This document shows positions 1,480 to 62,000 of a DNA stretch of 64,000 bases, piece after piece. Below the pieces are notes generated by a model that was not told where the DNA came from, did no database searches, and saw only the letters and a list, made by a program, of their open reading frames with translations. A program made the position numbers and the translations under genes. The DNA comes from Amoebophrya sp. A120 (lineage: Eukaryota > Protista > Dinoflagellata): the NCBI GenBank assembly GCA_905178155.1, contig CAJINV010000003.1, positions 8,538,799-8,602,798 of the forward strand, read 5' to 3'. Within the stretch, counting starts at the first letter, position 1, and each line of letters opens with the position of its first letter.

Positions 1480-4400
1480 CTATACCTCTTCCAGGAAGTC
1501 CTGGACTTCTGCCGGCGTCAGCACTCGAAAAATCCCGTCATCGCGAATTATCGGGAGGAAGAAGCTCACATTGATTCCTGACTGCAACAGCAAGACATAG
1601 CAAAAATTGTTTGCAGTCATCATGCGGTAAGTATTGTGCAAGCGGCAGCAGCTGGAATTCAAATTCATAAAAAGTAGGGCAAACATGAAAAAACGGCTCG
1701 GAAAAAATTGCGATGTGACTAAAAAGAAAGTCTGTCCTGTGCATGCCCAGTCGATGCAGTCCTGAGCTTGTGAGTTCATGGCTGATTGCTTGCATACGAA
1801 CGACGCCAACTTCTATGTTCTCGGAGGTGAGCGCCCCTTCCGCATTTTCGCGCAATGGGATTATCCAAGCAAACACAAACTGTTGAGTTCTCAAACTCAA
1901 ATTCAATTTTACCAGCGTGTACCAGTCTGATCATGCAGCGACATCTTTATAAATATCTATCATATAATTCGTCATACCTCCTCAACAGAAGCGCCAGGGC
2001 CGCCCTCGTTGCGTTTCCACTTCGTTCTACTTACATACTGTACCCTCGTCGGACAGATGACGAAGACGACGACGACGAGATAAGACTGAATATAGTAAAA
2101 TCAAAACTACAGGTGGTTGCCTCAAAATTTTGCTAGGATATTCAGGATGGCGACATGGATGGCGTCTTCGATAGGCAGATCTTCTCGGTATCGCTTCTCC
2201 AGAAAGGTTTTCATGGACTTGTAGTTTTTGCCTGTTGTGCGGTGGTTGTTAGTTCGTTTTCATTCCGTTCTTTCCGTGCTGTCGAAGCAGCGGCTTCTTT
2301 AAGTAATAATAACACGGCCAATGTGAACGTACGCTTACGCAATACTAGGTATGTGTTTGATTACGACACCGGCACAAGAAGTGGAAAAAAAGTAGAACGA
2401 ACTGAAACTGGTGCGTTCTTTTGTTGCATAAACTTTACCAATGGCGCTGGCCTTCCAACCAAAAAACGTTCCTGAAGGGTCCACTTGAAACAGCTGAGGC
2501 GACTTTGTGCTTTTGTCATACCTGATGAGAGTTAAATTAGTGACTCTGGTGGTCGTGAAGCGAGAAATCAACACTCATTGACTTAAACCAGATCTTATCT
2601 TCTGTTTCAACGACGCCGTGACCTTAACTGGATTTTCATGAAACAGAAGCTACTTTGTCCTTTTCCTCAAAAAGCCGAAGCGGGTGCAAGTCTGTGGTGC
2701 ACCCAAAATAATGAAATGATCTTCAGCACAAACACCCACGGGGAGCAAATTTCGCTTGGAGCTGCGTAACAAGTTCGCGGTCGGCCGAGGCGTTGCCGTC
2801 CAAACTCTCATCCGGCCGGCCGGGTCGGTGTGTAAAAAGTGGCACGTTTATCCGCGACCCACGCGCCCGCTGGCCGGATGGAACTTGGGAACGACCGGCC
2901 AAACCTGGCGACAATCGCCCACCTGGGGACCGCGTCGCAAGCGCAAGAAGGGTTTAATGTACTTAATTTCAATTTCTGCACATAGAGCTAGAGGAGAGCC
3001 GCCTGGGATGACGTCACAGGAGCGTTAAATACTTCAAGCATCTTTGGAAAAAGTTGGTGCATGGTCGATAGAGCTCGGGCACTCCACGGCTGTGGTTCTT
3101 GCAGAAAAAAACAGAAACCAAGCAGGAGTAGGTGGCTTGAGGCCGCTCTGCAGCGGAAGCGACCGCTTTTGGCGACCGTCTAGGTCGGAATATTTTACCA
3201 GCGCGCAAAATGAAAATGCTGCCTCGTCTGCTGCAAAGAAGTCGCACAATCTACTTCAGAAGTCGGTGGCTGTGCAGCAGGGATCTGCTCAACCCTACGC
3301 TTCTTCCTGAAGGTTCGCGGCAAAAAAAGCATAAGCACGGAAAAAAAGCACAAAGTTTTTCCTTGTGGCGCACTTAAAAACCATTGGAAGGCTTTCACCA
3401 CAGAGAAGGTTCTTTAGTGCTTTCATCTGCAGCTGTTGTGCAATTTGTCAAAGGTGGAAGAGACCCTCGCGGACCTTCAGAAGGCTTGAAAAACCAATGC
3501 CAGAACAAGGCCTGTTCAGACCTTCTGAAAATTCAGAAAGTAGCGGGTTGAATGTTGTTGCTTTTCGGACAATAGAAGAGCTGGCGCTGTCGCAAGATGC
3601 AAAATATATGACCCTCGCTTTGAACCTTCAGACGAAAAACATCCTTCAGTTTTTTTTTGAGGTTTGCAAGAGTTTCAATTTGCATTTCGATTTCATCTCA
3701 CATGTGTACATCATTCAGATTCATATATATGAAGAAATAGTTATGGTACCCTGCAACCATCATAGAGACGCCAAAGGGCCGCACGCCACCACTTTGCGTA
3801 AATTCCTGCAAAATCATCCACAAGAAATCAAAATTTACCGTACCCAGACACACACAATCTTCAACCACATTCCCTGACGGACAAGCACGAGATTCGGAAT
3901 TCATGCAGATCAAAGAAAACTTATAAACTTGAATTTCCTTTCAAGGATGATGCAGGCATAGCGTGTTCTTGCTTGTTGGCGATCATGTTTTTGTTTTTGT
4001 GCATGTCGGTGTACGGTAATATTTATCTTTGCCACGGATAATAATGTTGGCTAGCTCCCGGGTACACTGGCCACACGGGATCTCCTCTCCATAAATAGCT
4101 GTCGTTTTGGTAATATTTATTGCATATTATATTTATATAGATGTGTAGAAAATATGCATATGGCGCTGTTGTGATAGATTGCACAGATTCGGCATGTGGG
4201 CCTCCGATCGCTGACCAAGCCAAGCCTCTATTTTTCAAAACAGAACGCTATGCTTTTCTCTATGTCGTACAAAAGGCATACACATCTATCTGTTGCGTTC
4301 TTGGGAAGAGAAAGATGACCACGACGAAAAGCCAACTTTTATACATATTGATATTCAGTATCACGGCCGTCTAAGCAGTACAATCTAGATTTACAAACCC

Positions 4401-5819
4401 GATGGCACGGCCCCTATAAAGCAATAATTGTTCTCAGGCAGCCAGCACCACATAGCATGAAAATATTTATTAGGCTTGGGAATCGTAGCGCTTTGACTTC
4501 CGGGTGGGCAAAATGAAAGTGACGTGTCACTTCGCTACGTGGTGCTGCCCATATCAGATTTAATCTGATAGAGCCACTGTTTCATAATCACTACCTTCTT
4601 ATACCTCTACCAGAATGCCATAGTGATAGTACCCGTAAGATACGGAAAAGCAAAAAAAGTGACAGCGTCTACCTCTACACGTCTAAGCAACATGACTTCT
4701 AGTAGCATATACCGGTGTAATTCTGTGCCCGTTTTCTTCCCTGTCTCAAGAGAACCTTGTAGTCGGGGGCCATGCCCGCGTATACCGTGCCAACCTGTAG
4801 TTGATTTTATTGAAAGAAAAATGTGTGAAGACCGGGAATGCGAAACTAGTTGAGATTACAAAAACGGAGCAGAAAAGGATGCAGGTTTTCCCCGAGACGA
4901 GAAAATGAAACACCCTCATTAAATCGTTCCGTTGGTGGAATAATGACGAATATTATTAGCGAAGACTAAGACAGGCAGAGTGGCAATAAATAGAAATTAT
5001 AAAAAAAATCATTAATCCAATACGCCCTTGCACAGATTGTCAATTTTCTTGAACGTCTGCTGATCCATCAGGGGGGAATGTAGTCGCTTTTCCGTAGCCA
5101 ACACGACTCCATCCTTTGCCTTGATTCCGAGGGCGCTCACTCCATTTTCCACGGCTGTTATCATGAGGAAAAATTGCCCCTCCCAATATCGAAAAAAACA
5201 GAGATTGTTCATGCTGATTTCGTGATTTGTGGCGCTAACATGGGGCGCGCCAGATGGCAATTTCTCTTGCTAGGCCAATGTCCGCACCGCGAGCGCGGAG
5301 TGGTTCTTACTCATTACTACAGTTCACTCTCTTCTTTTCTAGCACGGCAGAATAATTTCGATTTATAGTATGCACAATCCGACCGTCAGAAATTGAAAGA
5401 AGTCCGTACTATTCTTTTCAACATATGGGACAGTGGGGTTTTTCATTTTGATAGCTGCCAAGGCGTATTCTATTTGAAACAGCTTGCCGCTCTGGGAGAA
5501 CGTGGTGAGAGAAAATGAATACTCGCTGTCGATTATCCGGTGTGGCAAAAATGCACGTCATTATAGCAGTCTTGGGAGTTCCACATTCCAAATTTGCATC
5601 CACGGCACAGTCGTGAGTAGCTAGTCCGCTGTGCCTGTGTCACGAATCATGCTTCTCATGCTGATTCCAGAATGCAAAGTTGTAGTTTCTTTCCACCACA
5701 AACCCGTACTTAGAGATTGGCTCTCACGGCTCATTTGAGGCATCCGGCACATGCAAGAACTCCATGACAAATATGGTATATATGAGTGCGATTTTACTGA
5801 GGATAACGATGCCCGCCAT
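1480..5819 (-). CDS. PSMA2: 20S proteasome subunit alpha type-2, 10 exons (5807-5819, 5455-5529, 5024-5154, 4713-4794, 4042-4098, 3750-3810, 2439-2521, 2142-2231, 1798-1857, 1480-1544)
   Basis: Joined exons total 717 nt (238 aa + stop): [34 protein letters not shown]...GVVLATEK...[12 protein letters not shown]...[16 protein letters not shown]...[22 protein letters not shown]...FLEKRY...ENIEVGVV...[13 protein letters not shown]. This is collinear with the known alpha-2 sequence. There are 4 GT-AG introns and 5 non-canonical introns. Confidence 0.95.
1545..1797 (-). other. Non-canonical intron 9 of PSMA2 (introner-like)
   Basis: TTC|GTATGC...CGATAA TTC|. Removal gives [12 protein letters not shown]. 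Confidence 0.8.
1858..2141 (-). other. Non-canonical intron 8 of PSMA2 (introner-like)
   Basis: TGA|ATATCC...GGATAA TCC|. Removal restores the conserved AILTLRE. Confidence 0.8.
3811..4041 (-). other. Non-canonical intron 5 of PSMA2 (introner-like)
   Basis: TTA|TTATCC...GGATGA TTT|. Removal restores the conserved Met of (I)MQEFTQSGG. Confidence 0.8.
5155..5454 (-). other. Non-canonical intron 2 of PSMA2 (introner-like)
   Basis: CAG|CTATCA...TGATAA CAG|. Removal gives YALA-AVENG. Confidence 0.85.
5530..5806 (-). other. Non-canonical intron 1 of PSMA2 (introner-like)
   Basis: TCG|TTATCC...GGATAA TCG|: a perfect 6-bp inverted repeat plus a 3-nt direct repeat. Removal gives MAGI-DSEY. Confidence 0.85.
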
Positions 5820-6699
5820 TTTGTCGTTTTCTTGTCGTCAAAATTTAACTGACACACGAAGCCCAAGTCCTTGTTCGCAAATGTTGAAGCTTCGGCGGTC
5901 GGAGTCGCTAGGGAGTCTTCTCTAATACCGCTTCAGGGTGTTAGTTTCTCCTGCTAGTGCTACTTTTGGTCGGCGACACGGTCACGCTCGCGTGGCCGGG
6001 AGATGGATGTCGTGCCTTGCAGCGAATGATGAGTAATAAAGTCTTTGCGATCCCGATCGACCGGCGACACGGGGGATTCAGTAAGTTCCTGCCAGGTTCG
6101 CGCGTCGCTGCTTATCGTTACAGTTGCTCTCGCACTCGCTATTGCCACGATAATGTATGTGTGACGTCGTCGTGATAGATACCGGAGGTTGAGAAGAGGC
6201 CGCGAAATTGAAGAAAGGCGAGCGGGGGAAGACGAAGAGGACGGGCGGCTTGTTAATTGTTCTACTGTTGCTCCAGGTACTCGTACCACTATCGCGGCGA
6301 GTGATGCGGTTTCTGATTCTTTCACGCGTCAACCAGAGCAAACCGGGAAAAATTTGTCTCGTCTATATTCAAACAAAATCTCAAGCTCAACTGAGACCGA
6401 GTCGGTATTGCCGTTTCAATTTATGATCGGAGAACTAGGTTTGCGCCCTCGGAGGTACTCCAAGCAAAACAAATCGAAACAGCCGTAATCCTTGTCCCAA
6501 GAGCGGCGGAGGTATGTAGATGTAGAAGTGGTTAACCCAAAGTAAAGATTTTGCGGCCAGCCGTGCTTCTCCAAACTGTAAGTAAACAAACCTCGTCGAA
6601 AATTTCACGTCGTCTTTCGATTCAGATTCTGAGAAATTATTCACAACCTTGTTCTAGTTCTAGTACACGTTGTTCTACCAGTGACAATAGAAGTAGCCA

Positions 6700-9600
6700 A
6701 CCACTATCCCTAATAAACTCCCTTTGTGATAAGTTATTTCTAGTACTGGCGGCTTTGATTTGCTTGAGTCGCTGAACGGAACTAAAGATTCATGGCTTGG
6801 ATATCGTGGTGATTCGTCGGAGACTCTTACTTTCAAATACAAATACAAACGAGTGCTGGAGAGCTTTTTCCAAAATAGATCCAATTTTTTGACTACCCAT
6901 GCATCCTGGTCCAGCTACAGTCTCACGTCACTATTTTTTATGATGGAAAGAGCTACATACTAATTCTAATGCGTCCGTCTCGGTGAGCGTGAGGCTAAAT
7001 TAAAAATGTCAACGATTGGACATTCATCCAAGTCTAGATCTTCACAAAAATCACCGCACACATGCTGAATGTCTACAGTGAAGGTGTCATATTTTGTTTT
7101 TACATTCTCGTTCCTGGTGTTGTGGATCCAAGTTTGCGTCATGCTCTGGCGTTGGATCAGGGCGGCCGAGGAGCCGCTGCCACGGCAATCGCGCCAAAAA
7201 CAACATTGCATGTAATTCGTGATCGTGATCAGAGGGTTGCATTGAACACCAGCAAGTTCTGTCTCGCAATAATACTGATTGAGATTCTCATCTCGACTAT
7301 GTATCATAATCATAGGCTTCAACATTCGAGTTGCGCCGTCGATGATCTTCATACGGCGACTCTTGTATGTTCCAATTTTTCCTTGTTGAATATCGATGTG
7401 ACTTCATTAGTGTAGCCATTTTCTCCCGAGCTTAATCTTTTTGCCTTACGCAAATTATCATACATATCGATACTACTCAGGAGCAACTTCATCAGCAATG
7501 TGCGTCAGTTAGTCAGGAGCAGTCACTTTGCAGGAGCTGCTGGGCACAAGGTGAAGCTCAGGAGACAGCGGGAGTGCTACGACTATAATAATACAAGACT
7601 GAGCCTGTCCGTCTCCGTTGTTCGTGCCTCTGAAAGCTTTTCTGGCGCCCGCAACTACGAAGGAATACAGTTTCCACGAAATACGCTGCGAAGTTACGAT
7701 TTCCGCCTTTATTACCGGTGAAAACGGGAGCCCGTGTCGGCATCGCTTGCTCTCCGTCCTCAAAAAGCTGTTGTCGCGCGACGTGTCAACTCCTTCTGTT
7801 GCAGAAGTGGCTCGATCTACTCCGTGCGTATGTTTCTTTTCTTTTATTTGAGGATGAATAATCTTGATCTAGTTAGAAACATCAAGGGCACGACCAGGCG
7901 ACATCAGGTCGTGGAGCCTCTTCGTCTCTTGTTACAGTACCTGTGCAGGCTCAGGCAGTGCAGCGACTAGATTTAGTCAAAGAATTCCGGCTGTGCGGCA
8001 GCGCGGGCCTTGCAGTTGTCTTCGCAGTAGCCCTTGGTTTCGCGACGGAAGACAGAGTAGACATCCTTCAGGTCCAGCCTCTGTGTCTGCAGGCGTTGCA
8101 CTGCGGCCGGATCTTTGTTTATCTTCTCGAACTTCTTGCTGACAGCGTCGATTATGCAACATGGGAAACGAGTTATCATCATTTTTCAGAAGTTCTGTGA
8201 GTATATTCGTTCCTTGACATGACCTGTGAATACTACAAATGATATAGCTTCGGCTCATATTCTTATTCGCACTAATTTCTTGGATTGGTCTGGATTGGTT
8301 TATCTCTCAAAACATGTTGGCTTTCGCGCGGTGACGAGTCACAAGCGATGTGATACTCGTCGATAAAACAGAGCAGTTCAGATAAAGTTGTCCCTGTACG
8401 TACTTTTGCTGTACATCTGCCTTTTTCCTTTTGTCATGAGTCTGAATCTATATCACAAGCCCGTGATTCATAAGATTTCTACTTCATATCGACAAGCCCT
8501 GGTGTGGAGCGCGAATCCGATGCCGTCCTCAAACGTGGAGGAGTTTGACTCGGACACGCAAGCACAGGCGGCCAAAAAATGATGATGATGTCTCGCTTCG
8601 TTTTCATAACCAGCAGTGCCGGCACGATCTCTGCCTTGTCCTGCTTCGGCCGCTCTGCGGGGGTGTCGGCGGACGTGTCCGGGTTCCAGTCCGGAGTAAG
8701 GGCCTTGTCCGTGATCCGGTCCAGTAAAAACAGGTAGGTGATTGTGTCCGCAATCTTACCCTCGCCCTTGTCCGCGGCCTCGGCGTTGATCACGGTGCCG
8801 TCCGTGTAAGTGATTTGGTCGACTGGTGTATCTGGCGAGACGCTGTACACAGCAGAACGACTTGCTCGCTTGTATTCGCTGCGGTCTCCGCTTTCACCGT
8901 CCTTGAAATATCGACTCTTGTCCCACTCCAGCTGTTGTGAAAAAGTGGCTTTTGTTGTTCGGGAGATGATCACAGTCATATGCGCAGAGCAGCCGACTAC
9001 AACTCTATAAATATCTAGACAAAAGAACGTACACGTAGAGAATCGGATCGAGGACCTACCATCCTTTCCTCGTCATCCTTTTCACAAAGTCATTAAAAGA
9101 AGAGAGTCTGTCTCTGTACTGCGGAAACGAGGCTTTCCTTGTAGTCCTTCCACTTAGGCAGAAGGTTGGAGATTCGCCGGTCCTGATATGTAGAGCCGAG
9201 ATCAAAAAGGCTCGCCGGCTGCGGCGGCGTCGCCAAGGTCAGGCCGGCTGTTTATCGCAATGAAAAGCCATCACTGCTGCCTCAGAGAAAAGCATTGCTT
9301 GCACTGCGTAGGACGTAGAACAGTTGGTTACCAACTTGCGGAGAGCACACGCACATATAAGCAAGAGTCTGTGCTGCTACAGGGCGCCTTTGTAAGTACA
9401 TGCGGACTTTATCATCTCGTAAATAAGCCTGTAGCTCCTCGGCTGCCCAACTTCAAAATTCTAGGTAGCGCGTCGTGGCTTTCGGCGCTATCATGCTGCA
9501 CAGCGTTCCTATAAATGTCTAATTTATAATGATCAGCGCATTTCTCGAAGATCATTGCAATAGCAATACAAATCACATTTGCAAGCAATGTTCATCCTGG

Positions 9601-9790
9601 GGGCGCGGCGGTGTCCATTCTGATACAACTGCCCCCATCGATATTAGGTTTCCATGCACGGCAGGATTCCACGCAACCTTTTGGAAAGGTGCGTTCGCAG
9701 GCTGTTGCCAGGGTCCAGCCGTATATCCGCCGACCTGTGCAGTCGATGTTTTTGGTTTGTTAAAAATACGGCCTCGGAGGTAGAAGTAAT
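6700..9790 (-). CDS. Hypothetical multi-exon protein(s), partly Cys-rich; boundaries approximate
   Basis: Protein-like minus-strand ORF segments at 9573-9790, 8590-8979, 7980-8165, 7010-7350 and 6770-6920 separated by AT-rich spacers. No family recognised. Confidence 0.45.
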
Positions 9791-11229
9791 CACATTCGAT
9801 AAGCACCATCATAATTTCCGAGGGTGGCTACATTTTTTGTACAGTGCCAGTGGTAAAAATGGTAAAGGCCTTCGAAGAACTTCGTCGATATATTATCGGC
9901 CAGCAAGTAGAACCGAGCCGAGTAGATTAGTTTGCTATTGCGTAAGTTTGTACCTGTACGGCAGGGTCCTGAACGGTCTCTTGCGGCCCCCAGGTCCGGT
10001 ACTGGAGAATGCCCTCCGGGTAAAACAAGCCGAGAACCATAGCCGCGAGGCCAAACAGACTGAAGAGCCAGTACTTGAGAACGCCCTTGCCGCTCCAGTA
10101 CGATGGCAGCTCTTCCTATGGAAGCGAAAATAAGCTCTGCCCCAGGGTCAGATCGTAGCGGGATGCGGGTATGAATGACGTCAGTGCGATTCATTGTGAT
10201 GGGCGTAACTCATACTCAAGAACGAGTCCTGGCTCGTCATGCTTCCGCTGTGTACCAAAATACAACATCGGCCACACCGACGCTTCTGACGACACAGCTT
10301 CTTGTGTTTCCGAATGCAAAAAAACCGCAGCGAACTGATACTGGGGCTTGTTCGACCTTTTTTGGTTTTCATAACTCCACCAGTTCGAGGCCAATCAGCG
10401 CTGGAAAAAAAGCCAGAAAGAAAAACGCACTGATTGCGCCGGAAACGTTGTCCCAGGAAAAACCTCGCGCGTCCACCCCCAGACATGAGCACAAGCGACA
10501 TGAAACAGCTCCTGCAGCACAAGATAAAATTGCCATGGCAGCCTGCCTCGAAGGAACTTTAATTTTATGTACAACCACACCACATAGAGATAGAACTCCA
10601 GCTACTTCATTCTACTACGTAAAATTTTACTCAATATGGCGGGGTCCCTTCGGAATTTTGTGCAAAAAACACTCAAAAGAAGCAAGCTTGTGAGGTTCGT
10701 CGTGTGTTTCTTTTGGTTCAGTCCTCGCATTCTTCATATACAGCCGCGAGGCAATTCATGACATACTTCGTTCTGCCGAGGATGTCTATCCGCATGCTTG
10801 CAAGTCCCGTACCCAGACACGGACACAGAGATCCCACTGCCATCATGTGGGAGTGGTCGCACGGAGGAGGTTTTTGCAGTGATACACGTTATTTAGAAAA
10901 TCCAACTCCCAACCCATAGTCGCGCAAACCACCGCCAATGCCCAGGCTGCGATCACGGGCCCAATCTGTTGTAAATATGTCAATAAACCACGTCTCAACA
11001 TTTTCCTGCCAAGAACAATAAACTCTGGATTGTTTTTCCACGACGGAGGATAAATATCGCAGCTGCAACAACTAGACCGAGTCGACAGTAGCATTCATAA
11101 TTTTCGCAGTTCGTGCCTACACTTTGTGCGGCGAATCCGGATGTAATATATATAAAATCATCTTCATCTGTGACCAAGGGAATATTTGAAAGATCTCGAT
11201 CGAGGAAGGTGGAAGTAAGAGTTGATGTC

Positions 11230-16981: not shown

Positions 16982-17013
16982 CCTAGTCTAGTGTAGTCTA
17001 GTCTAGTCTAGTC
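16982..17013. repeat. (CTAGT)n microsatellite
   Basis: ctagtctagtgtagtctagtctagtctagtc. Confidence 0.8.
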
Positions 17014-18509
17014 CATGGGGCGGTCGCGGTGGCGGTGGCCTCTTACCAGCAAGCTCGATAGAGCGTGGCAGGGAGCAACGCGATGCTTTGCACCACGGGC
17101 ACACGACTACAAGGTGCAAGTCTTCGACATAAATCTAGGCGTCAAAAAATACAAAAACCAGCAATCATCACAGCGAGACTTTAGAAAACAGACTTTCAGG
17201 GCGGAAAGGAGGTAAATCATGACTTGGAGACCCCCCCCCCCATTTGACGTTGGAAAATGAATCGCCCCGTTGAGGAGCGGGGGCCGACATGTTACAACTG
17301 CGAGCATTTCGCATGCAAATAGAGAAAGAGATAGAAAGACATACTAAACTATACAGAAATCAAGTGGCGAGCTGTTTCTTTCCTCAATTTTGGCTGTGCA
17401 GAGGATCCTCCCTCCCGTAAGCCGTGGCGTAGGACGTTGCGCCGCCCGACGATGCGGCGCGGCGAAAGGGGATAGCTAAATGCTACGACCGAAAAAACTT
17501 GGGCGCCATGCAGCGCAAGGTTACCCGCAAAGGCATGCGGCAAGACAGGTACGTCGTATCTCTCCAACATTAGGGTCGGTCTAATGCTTTAAACAATATC
17601 TCAACTACATCGAGTCAACATCAATGCACAGTGCTTCCAGATGTAGATCTTCTTGCTTGGGACTCCGGGTCGGCAGCCTCTAGATCTTCAAAACACGACG
17701 ACAGGCAGCTGCCGGATTGCAACGTGCAAAGGCAAGAAGCACAGCCGCTGGAATGAAATAGAGCATTTTATTACCCTATCCAGACCACAATTTGAATTTT
17801 CATCATAATCTGAAACGCTTCACGTCCTCTTCCAAAAAAATCTTATGCCCGGAGGAACAAGGAAAGGGACAGGGAGCTAGTTTTTCCGCGCCGGTTCTAG
17901 TCATCCCTAATTTTTATTTTTATCCTTTTGATGGTTTTGTCGTCTATGTCCAAGACTGCAAAAAAATACGTAAAATAAAGTCGTGACGTCGAGTAGTAGC
18001 CGCTGGTGCAGGGTGTGCAAGTTATATGTTCTGTACCTGTAGAAATGCAAATAGATTTTGAACTAACAAGTTGATGTAACGTGGAAAGATAAAGTAGACG
18101 AGCAACAGCAATTCGAAGTAGCGAACTGCTTTGGCTTGTGCATTGTGACAGTGAGACTCCATCAAGCTATGCAATGATGTCCCTATGATACTTGTTCTAG
18201 GGTGCAACGTGATAGTACATGCTTGCTTTTTGCTTTCTCATTCTCAAAGATTTTCGTCGTGCCGTTTTTTTCGTAGTTCGTTCTGTGAAGGCGGGGCATC
18301 TTCTTAGGTGTGGTCTTGTATAATGTTATCATTTATCTTCTATCATTGATAGAAAGATTTAGACCTTATCTTATCACCAGCAACACAGCTTGATGAAAAT
18401 TGATATCACAAATTAAACTCATCGTCTTGATTGTCTCGTTAAGGTTCATAGAAACTGAAACTCCACACCATCTTCACTGTTCTTTTGCCCCGTTCGAAAG
18501 CACATCCTC

Positions 18510-29109: not shown

Positions 29110-29525
29110 TCATAGGTGTACCCCACTCCCTCTTCCCCGCTGGGAAGCGCCCCGCAAAGGCGGAGTGGCACCGTTGCGCACTCAGAGCGCGCTACTAGCT
29201 GCCATTCTTTCCTGCGCAATCCCAATCCTCATCCTCCTAACTCCCTCCTCCCCGCTGGGAAGCGCCCTCATTGGTGGAGTGGCACTGGGGCGCAGTCAGA
29301 GCGCGCTGGCAGCCCGCCTTTCCTACGCAATCTTCCCAACTCCCTCTTCCCTGCTGGGAAGCACCCTCATTGGTGTAGTAGCTGCACATCTGTGGCGCAG
29401 TCAAACCAGGGTAGCTGCTGCCATTCTTTCCTACGCAATCTTCCTAGCTCCCCCTTCTCCGCTGGGAAGAACCCTTATTGGTGTTGTGGCACTGTCGTGC
29501 ACTCAGAGCGCGCTAGCAGCTACCA
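29110..29525. repeat. Degenerate tandem repeat, about 4 units of 95-115 bp
   Basis: Recurring ctccc(t/c)ctt(c)cccgctgggaagcgccc...gtggcac...cagagcgcgct...ttcctacgcaatc. Confidence 0.85.
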
Positions 29526-34700: not shown

Positions 34701-34900
34701 TGGACTCGCACTTCCTTCCGTTGCTGAAGATGTGTGCGCGTCTACCTTGCAGCACGGGTTATTCTGGGTCAGGGCCAGACAGTAGAGTACTTGAGTGGTA
34801 CCGTAGCCCTTGTTCCTGAGCCAAAAATAGCAGCTGTTTTCTTTTCGCAATCGCTGGATATCAGCCACGGATCGGCGGATAGGATCCAGCCAACACGGAG
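31773..34900 (-). CDS. Pro/Gly/Ala-rich protein with a Lys/Glu-rich tract; multi-exon, ends uncertain
   Basis: 765-codon ORF 32458-34755 with poly-Pro and KKEEKKQ runs and an NLS-like PAKKRKR. Further exon 31773-32258. Probable upstream exons at 35900-36700. Confidence 0.6.
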
Positions 34901-50052: not shown

Positions 50053-53000
50053 CTACGGAACCAAAATGGAAGATTTACCCATCCTGCTGGCGACGGTGAA
50101 GCTCCATGCTGCATGCTGGCCAAAGTCTTCTAAGCTCAATCGCTCACCTTCCATCTTCTTCGAAATGGACGTCAGGGTCTGAGGTGCCGTGCTACCTGAC
50201 GACCTTGCAAGGGTGCTGAAAAAGCCACCCCAGCAAAGCTCTCCTATCTTCTCCTCGCGTGCTTTCCCGTTCTTGTTTGTTCTTGCTTGCACCTTTGACA
50301 CCGGGCCCTTTTGTCCGTCGTCGTCCACGTAATGAAGAGGCTGCACGCCAGGACGGTGATGAAAGGGCAAATCCGCAAACTCTGCCTTTAGATGGTTCCA
50401 CAAGAATTGCCCTTCAGATGGGCCTCCAACCTCAGCCCGTTCGTCACCGGTAACTGGATCGTATTGAAGGTCGGGAGCAGCAAAACTATACGCCTTATTG
50501 CGACTCCGAGTCCTCAAACCATCGAAGTTAGCCTCTCGAAGCCGCGGCTCCGTGGACATCCATGGATAAGGCGTTAGCAGAGAGCTATCTTCAACGCCAG
50601 AGCCTTGCGTTTTTTTCTGCAGAAAAAGGCTGGCGCCGAGGTTCTGAAGACAGAACCGCTTCCAGATGGTCCGGGGGAAACCGTCACGGCGGTCCATGAC
50701 CGACCCGGTGTCTCCTGGTCCCTCTTCATCTTCGTCGTCTTTTTGCCAAGTAAGCACTGGCCCCTCGTCTTCGTCAGTGCCTTCCATAGAATTGTCATCG
50801 GACTTTGGCTTAATGGGGTTGCCCTCCTCCACCACATATGGGAACTCTTCCCGGATAGACGTAGCAGGACTGTTCGAGCCCGAGCGGAAAACTGCGGCAA
50901 CAAGCACATCAAGCCAGTTCAATGCTGCCCGTCCATCCAGAAGGTGATACTCGTGGTCCTCTCTGTCGTCGTAGGCTTCATCCGTGTCGTCCCCCGCCTT
51001 CCGAGCAATCCAACGCTCTGCCTGCATTGGGTTAATAAATCTCCTTAGCCGAGGCTCCGGCAGTGCGGAGGGGCGCTGAGCCCCACGCGTAAAAATCGCC
51101 TGCAGTGTCGGGTCGGTAAGAATTTGGCGCCCGCCCACCTTCTTTGCGTTAGCGTCTTCGCTTTTGGGGTACATGGTAACCCAAAACGGGGCCTCGCTAT
51201 CGTCGCCCGATGCCGGTGCAACTGTTCCGCCGGTGAAAGTTGCCTCTTCGTCACCGTCCCCAGCCGGCCATGCTTTAGAGCTTAGACATCCGTTGGAATC
51301 TTAGTGGGTGACTTTGCGGCAATATTAGGGGACTTGCGTCAAGCAGCACCCGTGAAAACGCTGGCGCGCTCGCCCCCAGGAGACAAATCCCGGGCACAAA
51401 TGAAGACGAGAAAGAAAAATCAGACATCAACGGAAGAGGAGGCTCCAAAGAAGCCACCATACCTTTGGCATTCTTGACGCAGTTTTTCCTTTATTGAAAA
51501 GACGCAGGCTCCAGTCGCGAGGGGCTGCAAAATTTTTCACTGGTAATCTTGCAGCAAGTGCTCCTTTTTTCCCAACCGTACTTGGTGCGGCCAAGTCGGC
51601 CACCCCTGCTTTCGGACATTTATCACGCGGAAGTCGTTGGCTTTGACTGTGATTTTGTGGCGATTTTACGGCTAGGGCTACCTTCCAGGTTTAGACGTTC
51701 TAGTCCGAATGCTATGACCAATATTTTGGCGATCAAATTTGACGCCATAAAAGGAACATTTTATCGGCTGCAAAATCGTTCGCAATTTCTTGCTGTGCTA
51801 CGTTTTACGCGAAAGCCGCAACATGCGAGTTCGCACGAATAGAGACGGCGGTGGCAGTGCGAACTTTCTTGCCTGTCATATTTTGTAGCCGTCACGCACA
51901 AAAAAAATGAGAAACAAAACTAGAAGCGCAATCGAAGCGCCAAAGAAGCAATCGCATCCGGCTACTTCGCTGGCGCCCATTGCGTCACCGTACGCGCTGC
52001 CTCTTGCGCAGTGCGTCCCAACAATGGCAAGGTTGAAAGTACAAAAACAAAAAGAAATAAATATAAAGCGCGCCTCACGAAAGTTGCTGAGCATGATGCT
52101 GCAGAGGCAAGCGCGCGCCAAGCTGCCCATGCAATGGAAACAGTCGCACACCCCCAAGGCGGGCAAATAAACGAACAAAAACAACCGAGCTTTTTCAATA
52201 TTGCAGAAAAATCACCACGCTAATACCTAACGTCTGTCCAGGCTGTAGCAGGTGATGCTCTTGCTTGCGGCGGGTGCACCACTTTGTTAAATTTTTCTAT
52301 GAAGTCTCTCTGTTCCCCGTCGCGCGGTGGTGGAACCCATACAAACCCATCCTGATGTATTGCGTCCAGTGTGCCGCGCGGTAGCTGCTGTCCTACGAGT
52401 TTGGGCGAGCTGAAGAGCGACGCCGCGACTTTCTTTGTAAAGCGGGTATCCGTGTTCCGCGTCACGACCCACATCGACTCCCCAGGCGTGCTGTCACCAG
52501 CGGACGTGGTTATTTCGAGGCCATCGTCTAAAACAGCAGAGTTTTCTGCAATTTGTTCACCAACCACTGTCTTTATCACGCCAAACCAAGCCAGCCCGTT
52601 GATAAAGATCATCATTAGGTCGAACACATCCTGAGAAACACACAGACACGACAATCCTACTGTGGGAGTTCCCTTCTTGCTTGTATCTCTTTATTTCTGT
52701 GCTCGACGACCTGTCCTAGACTTTTGGCCGCGAGCGTTGTGCCCGTGAGCTTCTTGTGTTCATTTCAAAGTATCAAGCGTTATCATGTTGGACCAAAGAT
52801 GTACACCGGCAAACCGGCGCACATTTTGCGGAGCCGAAGGTGAAGCGCCGGCGAACCTCCTACCGGGGTGTAGATGCCGCAGACCCAGACCTCACTGGGG
52901 ATGGGCTGCGTACACACTCCCCTCACAGGCAGAAGGCTCACGCCCGGTCGGCTTCCCTCTCCTCCGGCGGCTGCCGGCAAACCGGCGCACATTCTCAATT

Positions 53001-56000
53001 TGCACGGAGCGAAGCCCCGCGCGCCTGGCAGAGTTTGCGTTCACCGCTTGTGCTCCTCGAAACTCCGGGCCAACGCAGTTTGCGCCCACCTAAAGGAGGA
53101 CGCTCGGAACAGGTCGCCGAACACCTTCCCTGGCAGAGCAGGGTCACCCTTTCGGGTGAACGGGTTCACACTTCCTTTTCTTGGCCGCGTGTCTCGCACG
53201 CTGCTTGTCCGCCAAATGCTGCCGTCGTCCTGTGCTCTCCAGCATCTCCCGAGCGCCCTTGTACACTAGCCAAGGGATCCGCCCTGGCTCCAGCTCCTGC
53301 ACCGAGGTCGGGAGCGCTTGCTGCAGCGCAGCTATCTTCTCTAAGCGTGTCAGTGGATCGCTTAGGTTGCGAGCGCTGGCAATCCACGCCCAGCAAATGT
53401 CTCGACCAGCTGTGTCCTTGTGCAGTTGATGGAGAAGGATCTGCGACGCGAAGTTGCCGCATGAACCCTTCACGATGCTATAGCACTCGGCCGCGTTGTC
53501 GACGTGATGCACCACTAACGCGTCGCCGGGGGCGAGGTCCGCGGCGAAGAACAGATGCGCCACATGCGCGCAAAGGGTCTCGAAGAACGCGATGTCCGGC
53601 TTCAGGTGCGCCACCCAGGACGGCAACTCCTGCACGTGGAACGTGAAACCATGCCCGCGCGAGTGGTCTGCGTTCAGCATCAGCGCGCCAATGTAGATGC
53701 CGCGCGCTCGCGTGCAATACCGCCCCGGCCTCGACGGCTTCGCTTTTGTGAAGTCGTCCAAAGACGCGTCGCCATACACATGGATAACCCGGGATGGAAA
53801 CCCCTTGCGGATTATCTTTGGCCGAAGGCTACCTGCCTGCAGCTGCAAAAGGAGGACCGTCTCAAGCAGCTGTCTGCGTTCTCTTGGGTCCTTGATGCGC
53901 CTACTGAGCTTGTCGCTGCGCCAAACATCAAGACCCCGCACAACACCAACAGCACCTGCATCGAGCTGCGCGCAGTGTTGGAAGAGCCCTCGCACGGTCT
54001 CGACAGCCTCCCTAGTGGCACCGCGACGCCGTATTGCACCCAGTAAGCCGGACAGAAGCTCCTGGAGGTGCGCGACCTTCTCAGCCGCGGGGGCGACCGA
54101 CAGATACTGCTCGCACCTTGAACGTGTATAAGCCAGCCCGAGCGCCACCAGGCTCCGCTGCTGGATGTCCCTTTCGCCCCCGGACGGCAGGTAGTTACGG
54201 TCTTGCTTGGCCGCCTGCTGCGGAAAGCCACACAACGATAAAAACAGATCGACAAGAGCCGAGCTATGTGGCATACTTTTCACCCTATCCATGAGATGGA
54301 TATCATCTATGTACACTGGTGCCAGTTTGCGTAGAATACAAACCAGCACCAGCATGATAGCCCCTGAGCAGGCGACATCCTCATACACGGACACTATGCT
54401 ACCGAAAACTGTCACCAGGCTCTCGATGACGTCCCAACGCCGCGCCGCGGTCTTTCGCTTCTGGGGGACCAACCCGCTTGCGAAGGCTTCCTCCTCCTCC
54501 GCCGTGAGCCTGGGGACGACGAACACGCTTTTCGTCCTGTCCGCTACTGCGAAGTTGTAATAATAGGACTCCACGTCCTTCGTCTCGCTTGCTGGGATGA
54601 AACTGGACGCCACGTCCCTCTCAAGCATCTCAAGATCGGGATCGTCTTCAAACACAGAGGGCGGGGCGGGCTCGTAGCACGGCCGACCTGCGACGCCCGC
54701 GTCGCGCACCTCCTTCAAGAAAGTGCGCTCGTCGAAAATGTCCTGCGTGACGTCTCTTTTGCACTGGAACAAGGTGACGGGCCGAACGTTGCTACTCGCC
54801 AGCCGCGTCACGATCTCGCACGATGCGCGACCCCCCAAGAGCCTCATCCTCTCTCGAACTTTGACGCAGGCATTGTGCCTGCGCAGGTCAATGCAGAGGC
54901 GCGCTCTGTTCTTCTGCTTCACCGGGAAGCAGACAGCAGGCCGGGACTTTGCCTGCTCGACCTTGACCCACTTGCCCGTAGCCAACATCTTGGCCGCCTG
55001 GCGTTGCATCTCCTTGATGTCCCCAGGCTCGGCCCATGTGTCCGCGGGTATCTTGCGCGCCTCTTCAGCGCTGAATATCTCCGCTCTCTTTTGTTCCTGG
55101 GCCTCGTCACGATGGGGGAGGCCAATGTCATCCGCAACCGATACCCAAAGGCCCGAGGGGTCTATGTCCTCGTCGGTTTTGAAACCGGCGACGATCTTCT
55201 CTCGCAGCCCGAGAACCTTCCGCCTGCGCTCGGGCGAGAGGCTCGCGACGTCGCAAGCCCGGGCCAATAACCGAAGGAAGAAGGCCCACTGCTTATCTTT
55301 GTACACGAACCGAACATCTGCAGACATCTGCGCGAGCAGAGCCCCATTTTCCTGAGCTGAATCCGAATGGACTTGCAGTAGCCACCCTGCTAGCCGCTGG
55401 GTCGCGACGTTTATCTCATCGGCGGAAGAGCTCTTCACCTCGTCGATGACTGGCAAAAAGAAATCCGGAAGGACATCCCGGCGCCCGTATGTCCGCGCAG
55501 TATCGCGCTGCACCACCGCCCCCAGCGGGTTTCCCGGCCTACTATGGTCCTCGGCGCCCATTCGCGATAGATAGACTTCTAGATAGACTACGCGCAAAAG
55601 GAGAAAGAGCGCTTCGCTTGTTAAGGTTGGTAGGCCGGGCAGAAATCAATGTAAACAAAATCAAAACACAATCAAAAACACAAAGCAAGGGAATCAATAT
55701 GCTCAGAGGTCGCTGTGTGTCATATCATTCGAAAAGCAAATCAACCCACATCCCGGACCTACCAAATCAACCTCACCTCGTCCCGGCTTCTGCGACGCCC
55801 ATCTTCCTTACCCAACTGCGCCGAGACTGAACACGGCCCGAGGCCTTTGAACCGAACAAGCACAAGAGGGAGCCGCCCGCTGCGGATAGCAACTGAAAGG
55901 GCCTCCACCCTTGGCCTTCATCCTTGATGTACACAGCAACGGCATTCATCTTGATTGGACAGTAAAACGCTACCGGTTCCGCACAAAATTACATCGAGCG

Positions 56001-59000
56001 CGAGCACTGAGTGGCCAAACAGCTGGCAAGCTCAGTCGTTTCAACATTCATCATCGTGTGTTCTTGAGTGAGTGGTCTCTCCCGTCTGCAAAACATCTCC
56101 CCGAATCGAGTCGATGCGGCAAACCGGCGCACATTTTCGACCACCGTGCTGGCGTGTGATTCTTGTGGACGAGGTCCGGCAAACCTGCGCACATTTTGGA
56201 AGGACTCGTCGAGGGACTGGCGGAGGCGCACCTCCGGGACAGCATGCACCAGGCTTGCGGGGCATGCCCGGCAAACCAGCGCACATTCCTGACACGATGA
56301 GTTCCTGAGTGATATGATATCTACCGAAGTCATGGAGACGACAGTTTTCCTGAGTTACAGACGGCGGACCTAAGGCTCGGTCGCTTTCTCCTTCAAATGG
56401 CCCTCCGACAATCCGAAGCCCTTGCTCTTGTTGATGTACTGCATGAGACTCAAGCTCCCGCCATGCTTAAGCTTGCAGGCAGCTGCCGCCATAGGAGCAG
56501 GAGCCCTTCAAGTACAGCTCGCAGATCATGTCCCTCGCCTGCTTCTTGTTCGCCGGGGCGCCCGCGTCGCCACCCCCGGGACGCTTGTTCCCCAGGGCTT
56601 TCAACTTCTGCTCGAACCGCGCCTCCAACTTGGACAGCTTGGCATCCGTCGCGTCGTCGGCCTTCTTCAACAACAGCGAGCTCTTCACCTCGGTCTTGAG
56701 TCCGACGGTCAAAGCCATCCGGATGCGCCACTGGTACTGCTGCCCGGCCGCCACCCCGGCGGGGGCGGGCGCCATCACGCGAAAGGCACTCTCAGCGGAA
56801 TCCCACCAGATCTTGAACACGGCGGCCTTACCGTCGCCGGACTCATGTCCCTTGCCCATCGCCTGCGTCGTGATGAACGTGTGCGCAGCAGTCATGTGGT
56901 CCATCAGTATGGCCCCGATCGAGAGCAGGCAGGACACGAAGATGAAGGGCGTGAAGTCGGGCTCCTTCTTCACAACTGTGATGCACTTGGCTAAGGTTTC
57001 CGCCTCATAGTGGCGGCGCACCTTCGTGACCTGCTGGAAGTTGGGCTTGTACTCCTCGGGGACGTCCGCCACGGAGTTGTTGAAGGCCTGGATCTGGGCC
57101 GGGGTAGCCGGAACCGCGATGCCCGCGTCCGCGAACAACCCGGCAAGGCCCTGCGCGAGCGCCTGACTAGCGGCCATCCTGTTTTGTTCTGCTGTGATAA
57201 AAGTAGTGAACTACGGGTAGAATGCGATGAGGGATGCGAATTCTCGCTCCTAAGACTAAACGCTGAAACTGTTGCGACGCGCTGTCGTCGTGAGTCCTGT
57301 CACTGTTGCGAATTTTTGGTGCGGAACAATGTAACGAACTACCCGGCCAAGCCGCGGCGCGCGGTGCGCGGGGGAGCATTGATCGCGAAGAGTGTGTATT
57401 CGTTGAACTGTCTCAAATTTTTATCAATCATTTCCATCAGGGCGCAGTCTGATCTCAATCGTTGGAGGTGCATTTGCTCGCGAGATGATCATCATTGTAG
57501 CAGAGACGCTTGCACGAGTGGCCAGGGCAAAGCAAATTGCTCTGTCACATTCACTGCACGATTGCCCTCGTAGCGTAACTCTGTATCAATGTTCTTCCAC
57601 CTTCCGACCTGCGCGATCTCCTCCCGTGGCAGGCCTCCCTGCGCAGCGGCAGACGCTCCTCCGACCCTGAAGGAGTAGAGGTTCCACAGCTTCCGCCCGT
57701 CCTGCTTCTCCTCCATGTCGCACCGGCGGACTACCTCTTCCATGCATTTTCGCAAATGCGCGCCCGGTGCTGCGGCGTAGCCGGCCCACGCGTTATCCTC
57801 TATCGCATGAACCGGACAGAGCACCCGCCCAAGGCCCAAGGGCTGAACGGCACTGCAGCAGCAACGCATTCGGGCGTGCCAGCCTCGCTCATACTGGTCT
57901 ACTTTGGATTTACTGACAAATGAGTGGACGCGCCACTCCCCGCCCGCCTTGTAGACCTCCCGGGAGGTGTTCCTGAACTCATCGGGCCGCTGAAACAAAA
58001 ACCAGGCGGAGACGCAGAAGTCCAGAAAGACGCCGAGGTCGTAGGTCTTGCCCTTGGTAACGGCGAAAGGGGCCGCGCCTGACTTGATGGCGTCCACTTT
58101 CTTCCAAAATGACAGCAGGGCGGGATGCTGCTGCACCTGTATGACCCCCTTTTGCAGCTGCGTGAAGCAGCGGCTGTAGTCCTTCTGCTCTGCGTCGGTC
58201 AGTGGCCTGACGCAAGACATGCGGGCCTTGACATGTGCGAGCATGATGTGCCGCGACTTTGGGATGTTGTCACACCGCGCCAAGGCCGCGGCCGTGGCCT
58301 TGATCCTTTCGGAGCTCCAGGGCTCCGCTGGGTCCCACTTGAAGTGGGAGCAGATGGGTTGACAATACGTCTCGAACGCCTTCTGCTGCTGCTTCTTCGT
58401 CGCCGCGGAGAGTTTCTGGCCCTCGAACTCCTGGGCCAGTTCCTCAACTGCTGCCGGGTTCGCACTTAGTCCGGCGAGAACGTCGCCGATCTTCCCCGGC
58501 AAACCGGCGGATCTTCCCCGGCAAACCGGCGCACATTTTCTGGTGACTATCTCCGGCTACTGCCTTCTTCTCCTCCCGGACGAACCTCCGCTTCTTGGCG
58601 GGCTCATGCGGGTGACCCTTATCGCTGCCCAGCGGCGGGTCGCTAGATTCCTGAGGGCCGGCGCCCTGGCATTCCTGAGGTTCGCGCACGTCGACATCGC
58701 AGCCGAAGAGGACGTCGGCCCCGGCTCCGATCATCGCAAGGTAATCCGCGTCCATTTTTCTTTCCGTAGTTCTGGCTTTGCACAGCTTGAAAAAAAAATT
58801 CTTGGGCCCTTGCACTATGTTGAACTGCAACACCTGTACGGCTGTCCCTTGCCTATGGCTATGATCATCAACGAGCGCGGGATCTGGTCTACCTAATGAT
58901 ATCCATTATCACGCCAAACCAAGCCAGCCCGTTGATAAAGATCGTCATTAGGTCGAACACATCCTGAGAAACACACAGACACGACAATCCTACTGTGGGA

Positions 59001-62000
59001 GTTCCCTTCTTGCTTGTATCTCTTTATTTCTGTGCTCGGCGACCTGTCCTAGACTTTTGGCCGCGAGCGTTGTGCCCGTGAGCTTCTTGTGTTCATTTCA
59101 AAGTATCAAGCGTTATCATGTTGGACCAAAGATGTACACCGGCAAACCGGCGCACATTTTGCGGAGCCGAAGGTGAAGCGCCGGCGAACCTCCTACCGGG
59201 GTGTAGATGCCGCAGACCCAGACCTCACTGGGGATGGGCTGCGTACACACTCCCCTCACAGGCAGAAGGCTCACGCCCGGTCGGCTTCCCTCTCCTCCGG
59301 CGGCTGCCGGCAAACCGGCGCACATTCTCAATTTGCACGGAGCGAAGCCCCGCGCGCCTGGCAGAGTTTGCGTTCACCTCTTGTGCTCCTCGAAACTCCG
59401 GGCCAACGCAGTTTGCGCCCACCTAAAGGAGGACGCTCGGAACAGGTCGCCGAACACCTTCCCTGGCAGAGCAGGGTCACCCTTTCGGGTGAACGGGTTC
59501 ACACTTCCTTTTCTTGGCCGCGTGTCTCGCACGCTGCTTGTCCGCCAAATGCTGCCGTCGTCCTGTGCTCTCCAGCATCTCCCGAGNCCTTGCACTATGT
59601 TGAACTGCAACACCTGTACGGCTGTCCCTTGCCTATGGCTATGATCATCAACGAGCGCGGGATCTGGTCTACCTAATGATATTGATTTTGTCGGCGCCGA
59701 AGTGGTCGCGACGAGTGGGGATGTCGTCCCACCTCGCAGAATACGTCGAGTCTTGGTCGAGGTATCTACTTACTTCCATTCCAGTTCCTGAAAGCGGTAT
59801 GTCATCCGTGAAGTACGAATCGAAATCCGGCGAGAGCCGTAGCCCGGCGTACGCTGCGTTCACAATCGGAGGAGAAATCGCTATTTGGCGAAAGTCAAAC
59901 AGTTCCCCAGGAAAACGAGAAATCGGGGCAGCTTTTGCCAAGAAGTACCCGGCTGCAATTTTGTTTCGCCTACTTTTCGCCTCTTTTGCAGCCAAGGGGC
60001 GATGCAAAGAGGCCGGGTTTCTTTTCTCAGTTGCCTGGTGGAGGTCGAGGTCGGTCTCGATGCCCCGTCTTTGACTTTGGGCGTCCTCGACCATCTGCTC
60101 GTTTATTTCCGCTTCTATTGCTCTTCTGCTTGGCTTTGGCCAGCGCAAATTTGGAGAGCCAATTTGAATTTGTGCGGTCGGCCAGCGCAAATTTGGAGAG
60201 CCAATCTGTTCCGGCGTGTACACGCGGCCTTCCTCTTCGGCCTCACGGTCACGAAAGTTACCGATTCGCTCCCCCGCGCCAAGCAGCTTGTTCAGCTCCG
60301 CCAACACTTCAATCTCGTCGTTTGCGTGTGTCGGGAACCGGTTGGCGCGGCGGTTCTCGTCAACTTCCTTCAGCGGTATCTGGTGAAGAGGTTCTCGGAC
60401 ATGCGCATCCCACATCATGTGTTCCTGGTCCATCGTGTTTCTGCTTTTGGGCGAATCGGCTCCCCCGATATTTGGCGACAGCTTTTTCGCAAAATGCAAA
60501 CCAATTTGACGCTGTGCCGCCCACCGTATCTGATCTCTGTGCGCGTCCTACTCCGATGAACTCGCCCCCCACCCCCAAAACACTATTGTTATTTGGGTGA
60601 TCCAAAAAGCACACGTCGGGGGTTCAAATAGTTCCTTTTTTGGTGACCAAGTAACGCGTTTTTTTGTTTACGTGCCTCACGCTCTCCTGGACCTGAGGGC
60701 ATTGGCTTCTAAAATAGCGCAGCGCTTGACCTCAAAACCCTTGGTATTTCGGCGACAAAGTGCTGTCGGTATCTGCTTGGTCGCAGAGGATTTCGGCAGC
60801 GAGAACAGGACCGGGGTCGTCTTGGTAAGGTTCTTGGAGTAGTACTAGGCACCCGGCTGGGGAGGAAGCGCGCGCCGGCCGGTGGTTCACAAAGAGGTAG
60901 ACGGGCATGAAGTTTCCGTGCGCGTAACTTTATACACCAAGGCACGCCTCAGCTTTTTGGTGGAGTAGTTGGAACAAAACAGCTGGCGCCAGCGCCACAC
61001 TTAATTATTGGAATGAATTTTGCTGATCTACTCCAGCGCAGGAGAAGACATCTCGCGCGAAACTTCATACACCTTGGTATACTGCAGTCAGCGACGCAAC
61101 TTTTTTCGTCTTTTGTAGCCATCATGCTGCACAAGCAGATATAATGTCGGCGCTTCGCGTTCGGCAACCCGGATTACACTCGCCGGCGGCCCGGCGCAGA
61201 TTTTTGGCGCGTTCCACATCGAACACACCATGCGGATTAGCGATCAAAAGGCGCTCGCCGAAGTCATCGGCTTTGCATATTAATTACGGATAGGCTTTTC
61301 TTGCCGGTAAAATAACGGCTTTTTTGGCGGCTGCAAATCCATGTACTATCCGATTTGCGGCCCATGCACATGCAAAACAAAAACAGCCGGGGCATATAGT
61401 TTGCTGCATGAATGCAGCTAAAGATGACCAAAACTCCTGCTACTTTATGCCGTGGCATAGAACGCCACGCGCCGCATTATGATGCACTTTCCGCGGAGGA
61501 GGTGTAATAGATAACGCGCCAAAGATCTTCGCGAGCTTTCTAAATTTGAAGAAGCCTCCGCTCACGGCTGACAGCATGGCAAACGTGGCGCGGGCCCGAT
61601 GGTTCGGGGCGATGTATTTGGCGACGTGGTTGGATCGTGTTCTCTCATAAAGATTTACCACCCCTACTTATCTCCTATTGCTTTGCCAGGCACAGCATGC
61701 GTTTCTGCGGCGCCCCACGTCCTCTCGCTGTCGGGCATCTCCGCGACCAAATGCCGCGACTTTGTCGAAATGTTGAAGCAGCCTCTGCAGCCAAGCAGTG
61801 CGCTACTTGTACTTGGTGAGCAGATAGCGAAGCAATTGTGTATTTTCTGATCAAAATAAGGCGCGTCACTTGCTTACCAAAAGGCGCGCGTTTTCTTTTT
61901 GGTTGTTTAGTTATCCAATCCAAGAACGAAGCGAGCCCATTTGGCGTATGTCGGCGGTCCTCCCGGCAAGTCCACAGGACGCAGGCCCCGGCCCACCAAG

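Follow-up and report, generated by a model that had tools for sequence, protein, structure and literature searches.

A fixed cut rule for non-canonical introns in Amoebophrya sp. A120 and a candidate intron formed by a Cre-like recombinase retroelement

We analyzed a 64,000-nucleotide (nt) stretch of the Amoebophrya sp. A120 genome (contig CAJINV010000003.1, positions 8,538,799 to 8,602,798), referred to here in its full length as the window. Its genes lie on the minus strand and contain both GT-AG introns and non-canonical introns, the latter bounded by inverted-repeat arms (TAT…ATA), together with a 7.1-kb retroelement that encodes a tyrosine recombinase. The spread and splicing of the tens of thousands of non-canonical introns of Amoebophrya are an open question in the source paper.

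Sequencing runs X3 and X4, which derive from one sample and which we guessed to be RNA, were mapped to positions 1 to 20000 of the window; runs X9 and X10 gave no usable joints. None of the runs listed as containing the sequence is recorded as RNA. Within this interval, X3 and X4 yielded 26 joints, 15 of which were characterized as seven GT-AG introns and eight non-canonical introns. Because the seven GT-AG introns were skipped exactly, we accepted the two runs as spliced. A loose end adds a ninth non-canonical joint, and a contig piece supports a tenth intron. These ten introns are given below with their flanking 5-mers (exon side/intron side) and, in parentheses, the inner triplets.

798 to 1086, minus strand: non-canonical intron in the proteasome alpha-2 gene, AAGCT/AGGCT (AGC/GGC); RNA joint.
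1545 to 1797, minus strand: non-canonical intron, GTTCG/ATTCG (TTC/TTC), with the weakest arms of the set; RNA joint.
1858 to 2141, minus strand: non-canonical intron, CTGAA/ATCCC (TGA/TCC); RNA joint with zero slide.
3811 to 4041, minus strand: non-canonical intron, ATTAT/ATTTT (TTA/TTT), 3' arm ending in GATG; RNA joint.
5155 to 5454, minus strand: non-canonical intron, GCAGC/ACAGC (CAG/CAG); RNA joint.
5530 to 5806, minus strand: non-canonical intron, ATCGT/ATCGA (TCG/TCG); RNA joint.
8149 to 8609, minus strand: non-canonical intron, CTGGT/ATCGA (TGG/TCG), absent from the first-pass annotation; RNA joint.
9249 to 9626, minus strand: non-canonical intron, AGTTG/AACAG (GTT/ACA), likewise absent from it; RNA joint.
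12792 to 13070, minus strand: non-canonical intron, GGTAG/GCTCG; contig piece ending at 13070, arms, and open frame.
19763 to 19987, minus strand: non-canonical intron, CGACC/CAGAT (GAC/AGA), also unlisted there; the X3/X4 loose end maps across it.

We found that these introns are removed by one fixed rule. At all nine RNA joints, the number of nucleotides skipped is 5 more than the distance from TAT through the final base of the arms, and the sole cut that fits all nine keeps the four upstream bases, that is, it falls after base 4 of the flanking 5-mer. At two of the nine joints (introns 1858 to 2141 and 19763 to 19987) the position is unambiguous and no alternative cut exists. The window thus gives a precise splice rule: an intron opens with N-TAT and closes with ATA followed by four bases. 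The first-pass annotation, made from the DNA letters alone, had proposed that exactly the arm plus 3 nt is removed, with an arm that takes in one repeat base at each end; this rule is allowed by all nine joints and is the only option at the same two. When the proteasome alpha-2 (PSMA2) frame was rebuilt from the RNA joints, it read through 239 amino acids, matched Proteasome_A_N (E = 2.9e-11), and contained both of the conserved motifs on which that proposal had been based, ILTLRE and IMQEF. The splice geometry is real and sharper than the published description.

A further proposal was that boundaries are set by distance from the arms and not by dinucleotides. The nine RNA joints bear this out, as their boundaries keep a constant position with respect to the arms and show no conserved dinucleotide at the intron ends. 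To say that sequence plays no part would be too strong, since intron positions +2 to +4 read TAT in 9/9 cases. All seven RNA-backed GT-AG introns (window positions 1148 to 9953) begin GTA(T/A/C). The 5' arm of the non-canonical introns, with its N-TAT start, doubles as a donor-like motif resembling the GTA donors of this genome. The base after the 3' arm is A in 8 of the 10 RNA-backed introns. RNA folding of intron 1858 to 2141 paired its ends, yet the stability was no better than that of shuffled sequences (z = -0.67).

We compared the flanks in a set of 23 introns with TAT…ATA arms, comprising the 10 RNA-supported introns and 13 recognized from arms and open frames. A matrix scan found 28 pairs in the window and 0 to 2 in each of five shuffles. 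Nine of the 28 were training introns, nine were kept, and 10 were dropped (three alternative pairings and seven scoring 23 to 31, against a shuffled maximum of 29). The arm-only part of the set is not fully blind, as one kept pair (21758 to 21975; score 29.0, 5/5 flank matches) lies in the shuffled range and a dropped pair scoring 30.9 had 2/5. Tandem-repeat rows and weak TGT pairs, including 44396 to 44929 (3/5), were dropped from 24 candidate rows; intron 14540 to 14872, which had been spotted through its own repeat, was left out of the match counts, as were the 118 noisy pairs of a plain motif scan.

The flanking repeat is five bases long and lies outside the TAT…ATA arms; we rejected a description as 3 nt only. 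At the five flank positions the 23 introns matched in 15, 16, 18, 13, and 14 cases, versus 7.0, 6.4, 5.7, 7.3, and 5.7 under flank permutation. This amounts to 47/69 inner-triplet bases (19.4 permuted) and 29/46 bases at the outer two positions (12.7 permuted). The RNA-backed introns agree in direction (inner matches 17/30, P = 0.0015; outer matches 12/20, P = 0.005). The repeats are imperfect: 10 triplets match fully, six at two bases, five at one, and two at none, and the whole 5-mer is perfect in 4 of the 23 introns. The earlier claim that the flanks are often not duplications was therefore right about the mismatched triplets, which are real, and overstated otherwise. Of eight single mismatches, six are transitions; in five of these the exon-side copy reads G where the intron-side copy, directly behind the 3' arm, reads A. 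On average, identity between the two flanks is 0.66, close to the 0.69 between the two arms (cross-intron background, 0.57). Overdispersion of the 5-mer match counts is not significant (P = 0.08).

Several elements known from the DNA bear on the same question.

39185 to 39461, minus strand: inferred intron, ATGCT/ATGCT (TGC/TGC), with the best arms of the TAT class; arms and open frame.
40341 to 45268, minus strand: inferred 4.9-kb intron, GGCCG/GGCCA (GCC/GCC); BLAST arms and open frame.
40648 to 44380, no strand assigned: nested TGT…ACA inverted-repeat element with a perfect 5-bp repeat, TGGCG, inside the 4.9-kb intron.
46674 to 47536, minus strand: inferred intron, a TTA…TAA element (46678 to 47535) with long arms and a perfect 5-bp repeat; removal keeps the frame.
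60545 to 62611, minus strand: inferred intron, a TAC…GTA element (60549 to 62610) with a perfect 5-bp repeat and triplets GAC/GAC; DNA only.

The three long-arm elements with TTA, TAC, or TGT ends all have perfect 5-mers. Two intron families of three members each occur in the window, one of them an arm family made up of introns 39185 to 39461, 798 to 1086, and 27870 to 28210. In these families the outer flank bases match within the locus in 11/12 cases and are common to family members in 2/12. Because the outer bases are specific to the locus and yet matched within it, they bear the signature of target duplication.

Toward the end of the window lies the recombinase retroelement, laid out as repeat A, three minus-strand frames, repeat B, a 3-nt junction, and a second copy of each repeat (A' and B').

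52570 to 59682, minus strand: the element (52573 to 59682) plus one triplet, 7113 nt; in-frame removal by the intron rule is predicted.
52573 to 53253, no strand assigned: repeat A, starting TTATCA on the plus strand, 678/681 identical to A'.
53144 to 55645, minus strand: 833-codon open frame, likely reverse transcriptase (RT)/RNase H, with a visible YIDD motif; no Pfam match.
56467 to 57210, minus strand: 247-codon open frame, possibly gag-like, with a CCCH-like motif at its end; weak zf-CCCH match (E = 0.07 to 0.12).
57492 to 58556, minus strand: Cre-like tyrosine recombinase, 354 codons; profile and predicted fold.
58808 to 58902, no strand assigned: repeat B, ending TGATAT on the plus strand, 95/95 identical to B'.
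58903 to 58905, minus strand: internal junction triplet between B and A', TGG on the sense strand.
58906 to 59682, no strand assigned: A' plus B' unit, 777 nt, with an N at the seam (59587).
59683 to 59685, minus strand: exon-side triplet TCA.

The recombinase frame has 103 relatives and keeps the catalytic positions R146, K174, R253, W276, and Y285; in H-x-x-R, this enzyme and most relatives have Tyr at the first position. It matches Cre by profile (E = 1e-8), and its predicted fold (pLDDT 92) matches Cre at E = 1.7e-6 and Tn1549 Int at E = 0.02. The closest relatives come from Amoebophrya AT5.2. Metagenome and viral scans with a narrow recombinase alignment gave no matches. A wider alignment found L001, a related lone recombinase frame (2441 to 3588) between 56-bp direct repeats (2449 to 2504 and 3533 to 3588), with no pol or gag nearby and uninformative ends. 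For the 833-codon frame, atlas neighbors at 0.95 to 0.97 include clusters with RVT_1 or RT_RNaseH in 10 to 100% of members, which serves as a lead.

On the sense strand the element ends in TATCA…TGATA, which is the intron motif. Its three spacers are ATCAA, ATGGA, and AAGAC, so that the triplets TCA, TGG, and AGA all differ; the outer flanks (ATCAA/AAGAC) contain no target-site duplication (TSD), and neither equals the internal junction triplet. The split repeats are 99.6 to 100% identical, and the element is likely young, judging from this near-identity. Since the triplets differ by two substitutions at less than 0.5% repeat divergence, the insertion made no duplication, unless conversion reset the repeats. 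The earlier description of this element (52570 to 59685) as a tyrosine recombinase element with non-duplicated, mutually different triplets thus held up despite repeats this similar. Removing 7113 nt by the intron rule would leave a 403-codon open host frame, an outcome with a one-in-three chance by itself. The element would leave the host mRNA in frame and is a candidate intron, one whose ends would obey the splice rule without target duplication and which may be autonomous. Its arms pair over only 5 bp, whereas the introns carry arms of 30 to 50 nt, and they show no family likeness to intron arms (best score 18; cross-pair median 14, 95th percentile 24.5). No longer homolog was found for the host exon around the element. 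The A'B' unit by itself shows the complete motif of the intron ends. It is similar to solo AB or SIRE units, and such solos could serve as short introns. The internal junction of the element has the form TGATA-N5-TATCA, and a second such motif lies at 4349 to 4363, inside a canonical intron, making two in the window versus 0.02 expected.

Eleven triplet pairs had been listed in the first-pass annotation, and we located 10 of them, six backed by spliced contigs and four from DNA only. The remaining pair, CAC/ACG, is tentatively placed at 31236 to 31784, where the 3' end is ambiguous. Two pairs fall outside the range given for them (1545 to 59685): AGC/GGC (798 to 1086) before its start and GAC/GAC (60545 to 62611), the only good case found, past its end. 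The 4.9-kb intron contains nested inverted-repeat elements (40648 to 44380 and 44385 to 44940), a tandem array of palindromic units (about 42480 to 43020), and a short AACCCT-like run near 44070 to 44100. The intron at 46674 to 47536 has the TTA-purine ends described for strain A25, although its neighbors are of the TAT type, and the same rule would take it out in frame. At its BLAST ends, the inverted-repeat element at 37833 to 38581 lacks a direct repeat. The interval 29120 to 29525 holds three to four direct repeats, diverged and each about 110 nt long. At 17026 to 17110, three runs place reads and contigs that have loose ends and differ at many bases, which probably marks a conserved RNA or repeat fragment. 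The large minus-strand host frame or frames with long exons at 39379 to 60547 gave no Pfam match, and no longer homolog was found.

We favor, with a probability of about 0.6, an explanation in which two routes lead into one splice code: decayed TSDs of cut-and-paste transposons for most introns, and tyrosine recombination for the 7.1-kb element. The 5-mers are likely TSDs made by cut-and-paste transposons and eroded since then, and apart from this erosion they agree with the repeats published for Amoebophrya (3 to 5 nt in PMC7789003; 5 bp for the Ginger-like fam38 in PMC12130899). Most introns would stem from transposons that insert by a 5-bp staggered cut. The repeat bases that lie within the intron, its first base and its last four, would drift afterward, and selection may have favored A to some degree directly behind the 3' arm. 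The 7.1-kb element would enter by tyrosine recombination without duplication, its ends and spacer adding the same length. The splicing machinery may read N-TAT as a relaxed donor and cut at a fixed distance past the 3' arm; that the first base is free is suggested by the seven canonical donors, all of which read GTA. The branch point may be the A that follows the 3' arm, again at a fixed distance. In Yarrowia, Trichomonas, and Giardia, the branch point is known to keep a fixed distance (PMC2483917). An element landing in an exon would then survive only if it added exactly the arm span plus 5, so that unrelated element classes, the recombinase element included, would come to share one geometry.

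Several observations weigh against this two-route explanation. No transposase gene was recognized in the window, with no Pfam match among 18 frames, those of 40300 to 45300 being partly scanned. Arm score and flank match are unrelated (rho = 0.06 for triplets and 0.12 for 5-mers, n = 23): the worst-armed intron has a perfect triplet, and the TGA/TCC intron has 9/10 arm matches. Selection on the arms may, however, make them an unreliable clock. The triplet matches vary more among introns than expected (overdispersion, P = 0.02), and the cases with multiple mismatches look random, with 11/31 transitions. Family members share the inner triplet (11/18 versus 4.5 expected, P = 0.002) and not the outer bases; over seven thresholds P ranged from 0.0008 to 0.16 for the inner triplet and never fell below 0.29 for the outer positions. 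This sharing, which concerns six introns grouped after the fact, is a lead only. Automated TSD weights are about 0.5 to 0.9 in nearly all of 53 (out of 58) A120 rows of a published supplement, though the rows of other species there are similar (PMC12130899). Finally, that a recombinase element should share the TATC…GATA ends and the 5-nt spacer is a striking coincidence. Two weak signals, the missing link between mismatch and arm decay and the shared inner triplets, keep a wider role for the recombinase open.

Such a role is central to a second model, in which the introns travel as circles, mobilized by a Cre-like recombinase that crosses over within a 5-nt spacer, and repair of heteroduplexes or replication yields perfect, patchy, or unrelated flanks at birth; we regard this as unlikely. 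The element has the terminal motif of the introns, a 5-nt spacer (TGATA-N5-TATCA), and three different triplets between near-identical repeats. The lack of an age trend, the overdispersed triplets, and the low share of transitions among multiple mismatches are also as expected. Tn1549 crossover regions are 5 to 7 nt long and non-homologous (PMC5871717), and both VIPER/SIRE and Ngaro have known solo A2B2 units. However, the 5-bp arms of the element are unlike any intron arm, and the nearest relatives of the recombinase are in AT5.2, whose introns are reported to be 99.98% canonical. The perfect repeats of the long-arm elements also argue against the model, and in 53 of the 58 A120 rows the final class is never DIRS or Crypton (PMC12130899). 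We give an equally low standing to the related proposal that the TAT…ATA introns are driven by the Cre-like retroelement as their autonomous member, with arms and spacer setting the splice code, the whole element spliced out, and flanks born imperfect. Were the element to drive the introns, introns could be gained en masse through site-specific recombination. Had it only converged on the rule, it would be a retroelement that passes for an intron by imitating a private splice code.

The sharing of inner triplets within families (AGC, TGC, TGC in one; ACG, AGC, ACA in the other) could also reflect homology-guided integration of the DIRS1 type, in which a 3-nt core borne by the family recombines with a matching genomic triplet and the matches are not duplications. 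DIRS1-like elements do have a 3-bp junction and end triplets such as CTT/CAT (PMC3266345). We consider this quite improbable: it leaves the locus-specific matches at the two outer positions unexplained, both flanks of the recombinase element differ from its own junction triplet, and the test uses two three-member families defined post hoc. A transposase whose target preference varied by family would also produce such sharing.

It is also very improbable that the youth or layout of the element is an artifact, either of homogenization by gene conversion or of a tandem copy collapsed into A'B' at an assembly gap. The only N in the window does lie at the A'/B' seam, and in-frame removal could be luck. 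But the seam falls on a 7-nt sequence common to A and B, as a real junction would, the recombinase and pol frames are open, and even with a tandem copy the three triplets would differ.

Barely credible is the strict claim of the first-pass annotation that every triplet is a coupling sequence of the Tn916 type, unrelated to its target: 7/23 triplets match at one base or none and the recombinase element fits, but homology-free coupling predicts matches at chance level and both flanks match far above it, outer positions included, with nearly half of the triplets perfect. Coupling is thus not the general rule; it fails as such and holds for one likely young element. That annotation had itself named perfect duplications in all young copies, with mismatch rising only with age, as the observation that would speak against it, and the three long-arm elements, perfect over 5 bp, come close to this.

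In a full-text literature search whose coverage excluded Roy et al. 2023, we found no proposal of a recombinase as mobilizer of these introns, and the portions consulted of PMC12005148, PMC9860276, and PMC11282704 contain nothing on one. Farhat et al. 2021 (PMC7789003) described the non-canonical introns of Amoebophrya A25 and A120, with terminal inverted repeats and direct repeats of 3 to 5 nt, including a 5-bp example. There, A120 arms start with TAT and have a downstream A-run, splice positions relative to the arms are variable or unknown, and no mobilizer is named in the sections available to us. The window introns resemble those introner elements in their non-GT-AG ends, inverted repeats, 3- to 5-nt repeats, TAT arms, and similar lengths. 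They differ in that a single cut rule fits nine joints and a recombinase element shares their termini.

Most A120 families are terminal inverted-repeat elements in the classification of Gozashti et al. 2025 (PMC12130899), whose supplement file 8 annotates fam38 as "Ginger, 5-bp TSD, TA/TA termini." Like fam38, the window introns have TA…TA termini, a 5-bp flanking repeat, and inverted repeats of about 30 to 60 nt; unlike it, they have many imperfect 5-mers, and no integrase frame was found in the partly scanned frames of the window elements. Ginger2/TDD elements have 4- to 5-bp TSDs and TGT termini (PMC2836005). Stray DIRS or Crypton matches occur in A120 fam5, fam86, and fam93, which have other final classes (53/58 rows).

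The recombinase element resembles Ngaro, VIPER, and PAT-like elements (PMC8547959 and PMC6681497) in its near-identical A…B-A-B repeats, tyrosine recombinase, RT/RNase H-like and gag-like frames, and lack of a TSD. Its ends carry the host intron motif, as theirs do not, and its frames run antisense to the layout in the order recombinase, gag-like, pol, whereas Ngaro is A1-gag-RT/RH-YR-B1A2B2 in sense. Unlike in most DIRS1-like elements, its end triplets (TCA and AGA) differ from the junction TGG (PMC3266345). Tn916 and Tn1549 likewise have short inverted ends around a non-homologous crossover of 5 to 7 nt (PMC5871717), comparable to the three spacers of the element. However, these are bacterial DNA elements, the enzyme in the window is nearer to Cre than to Tn1549 Int, and most window introns, unlike Tn916-type insertions, show flank duplication. 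A close parallel in a dinoflagellate is provided by fam3 and fam5 of Polarella glacialis (PMC12130899), in which DIRS/Ngaro-derived retroelements or solo repeats serve as introns, a role that is predicted for the window element. The Polarella introns use GT/GC/GA-AG splice sites, and the full fam5 element is noted with a 5-bp TSD, whereas the window element has neither.

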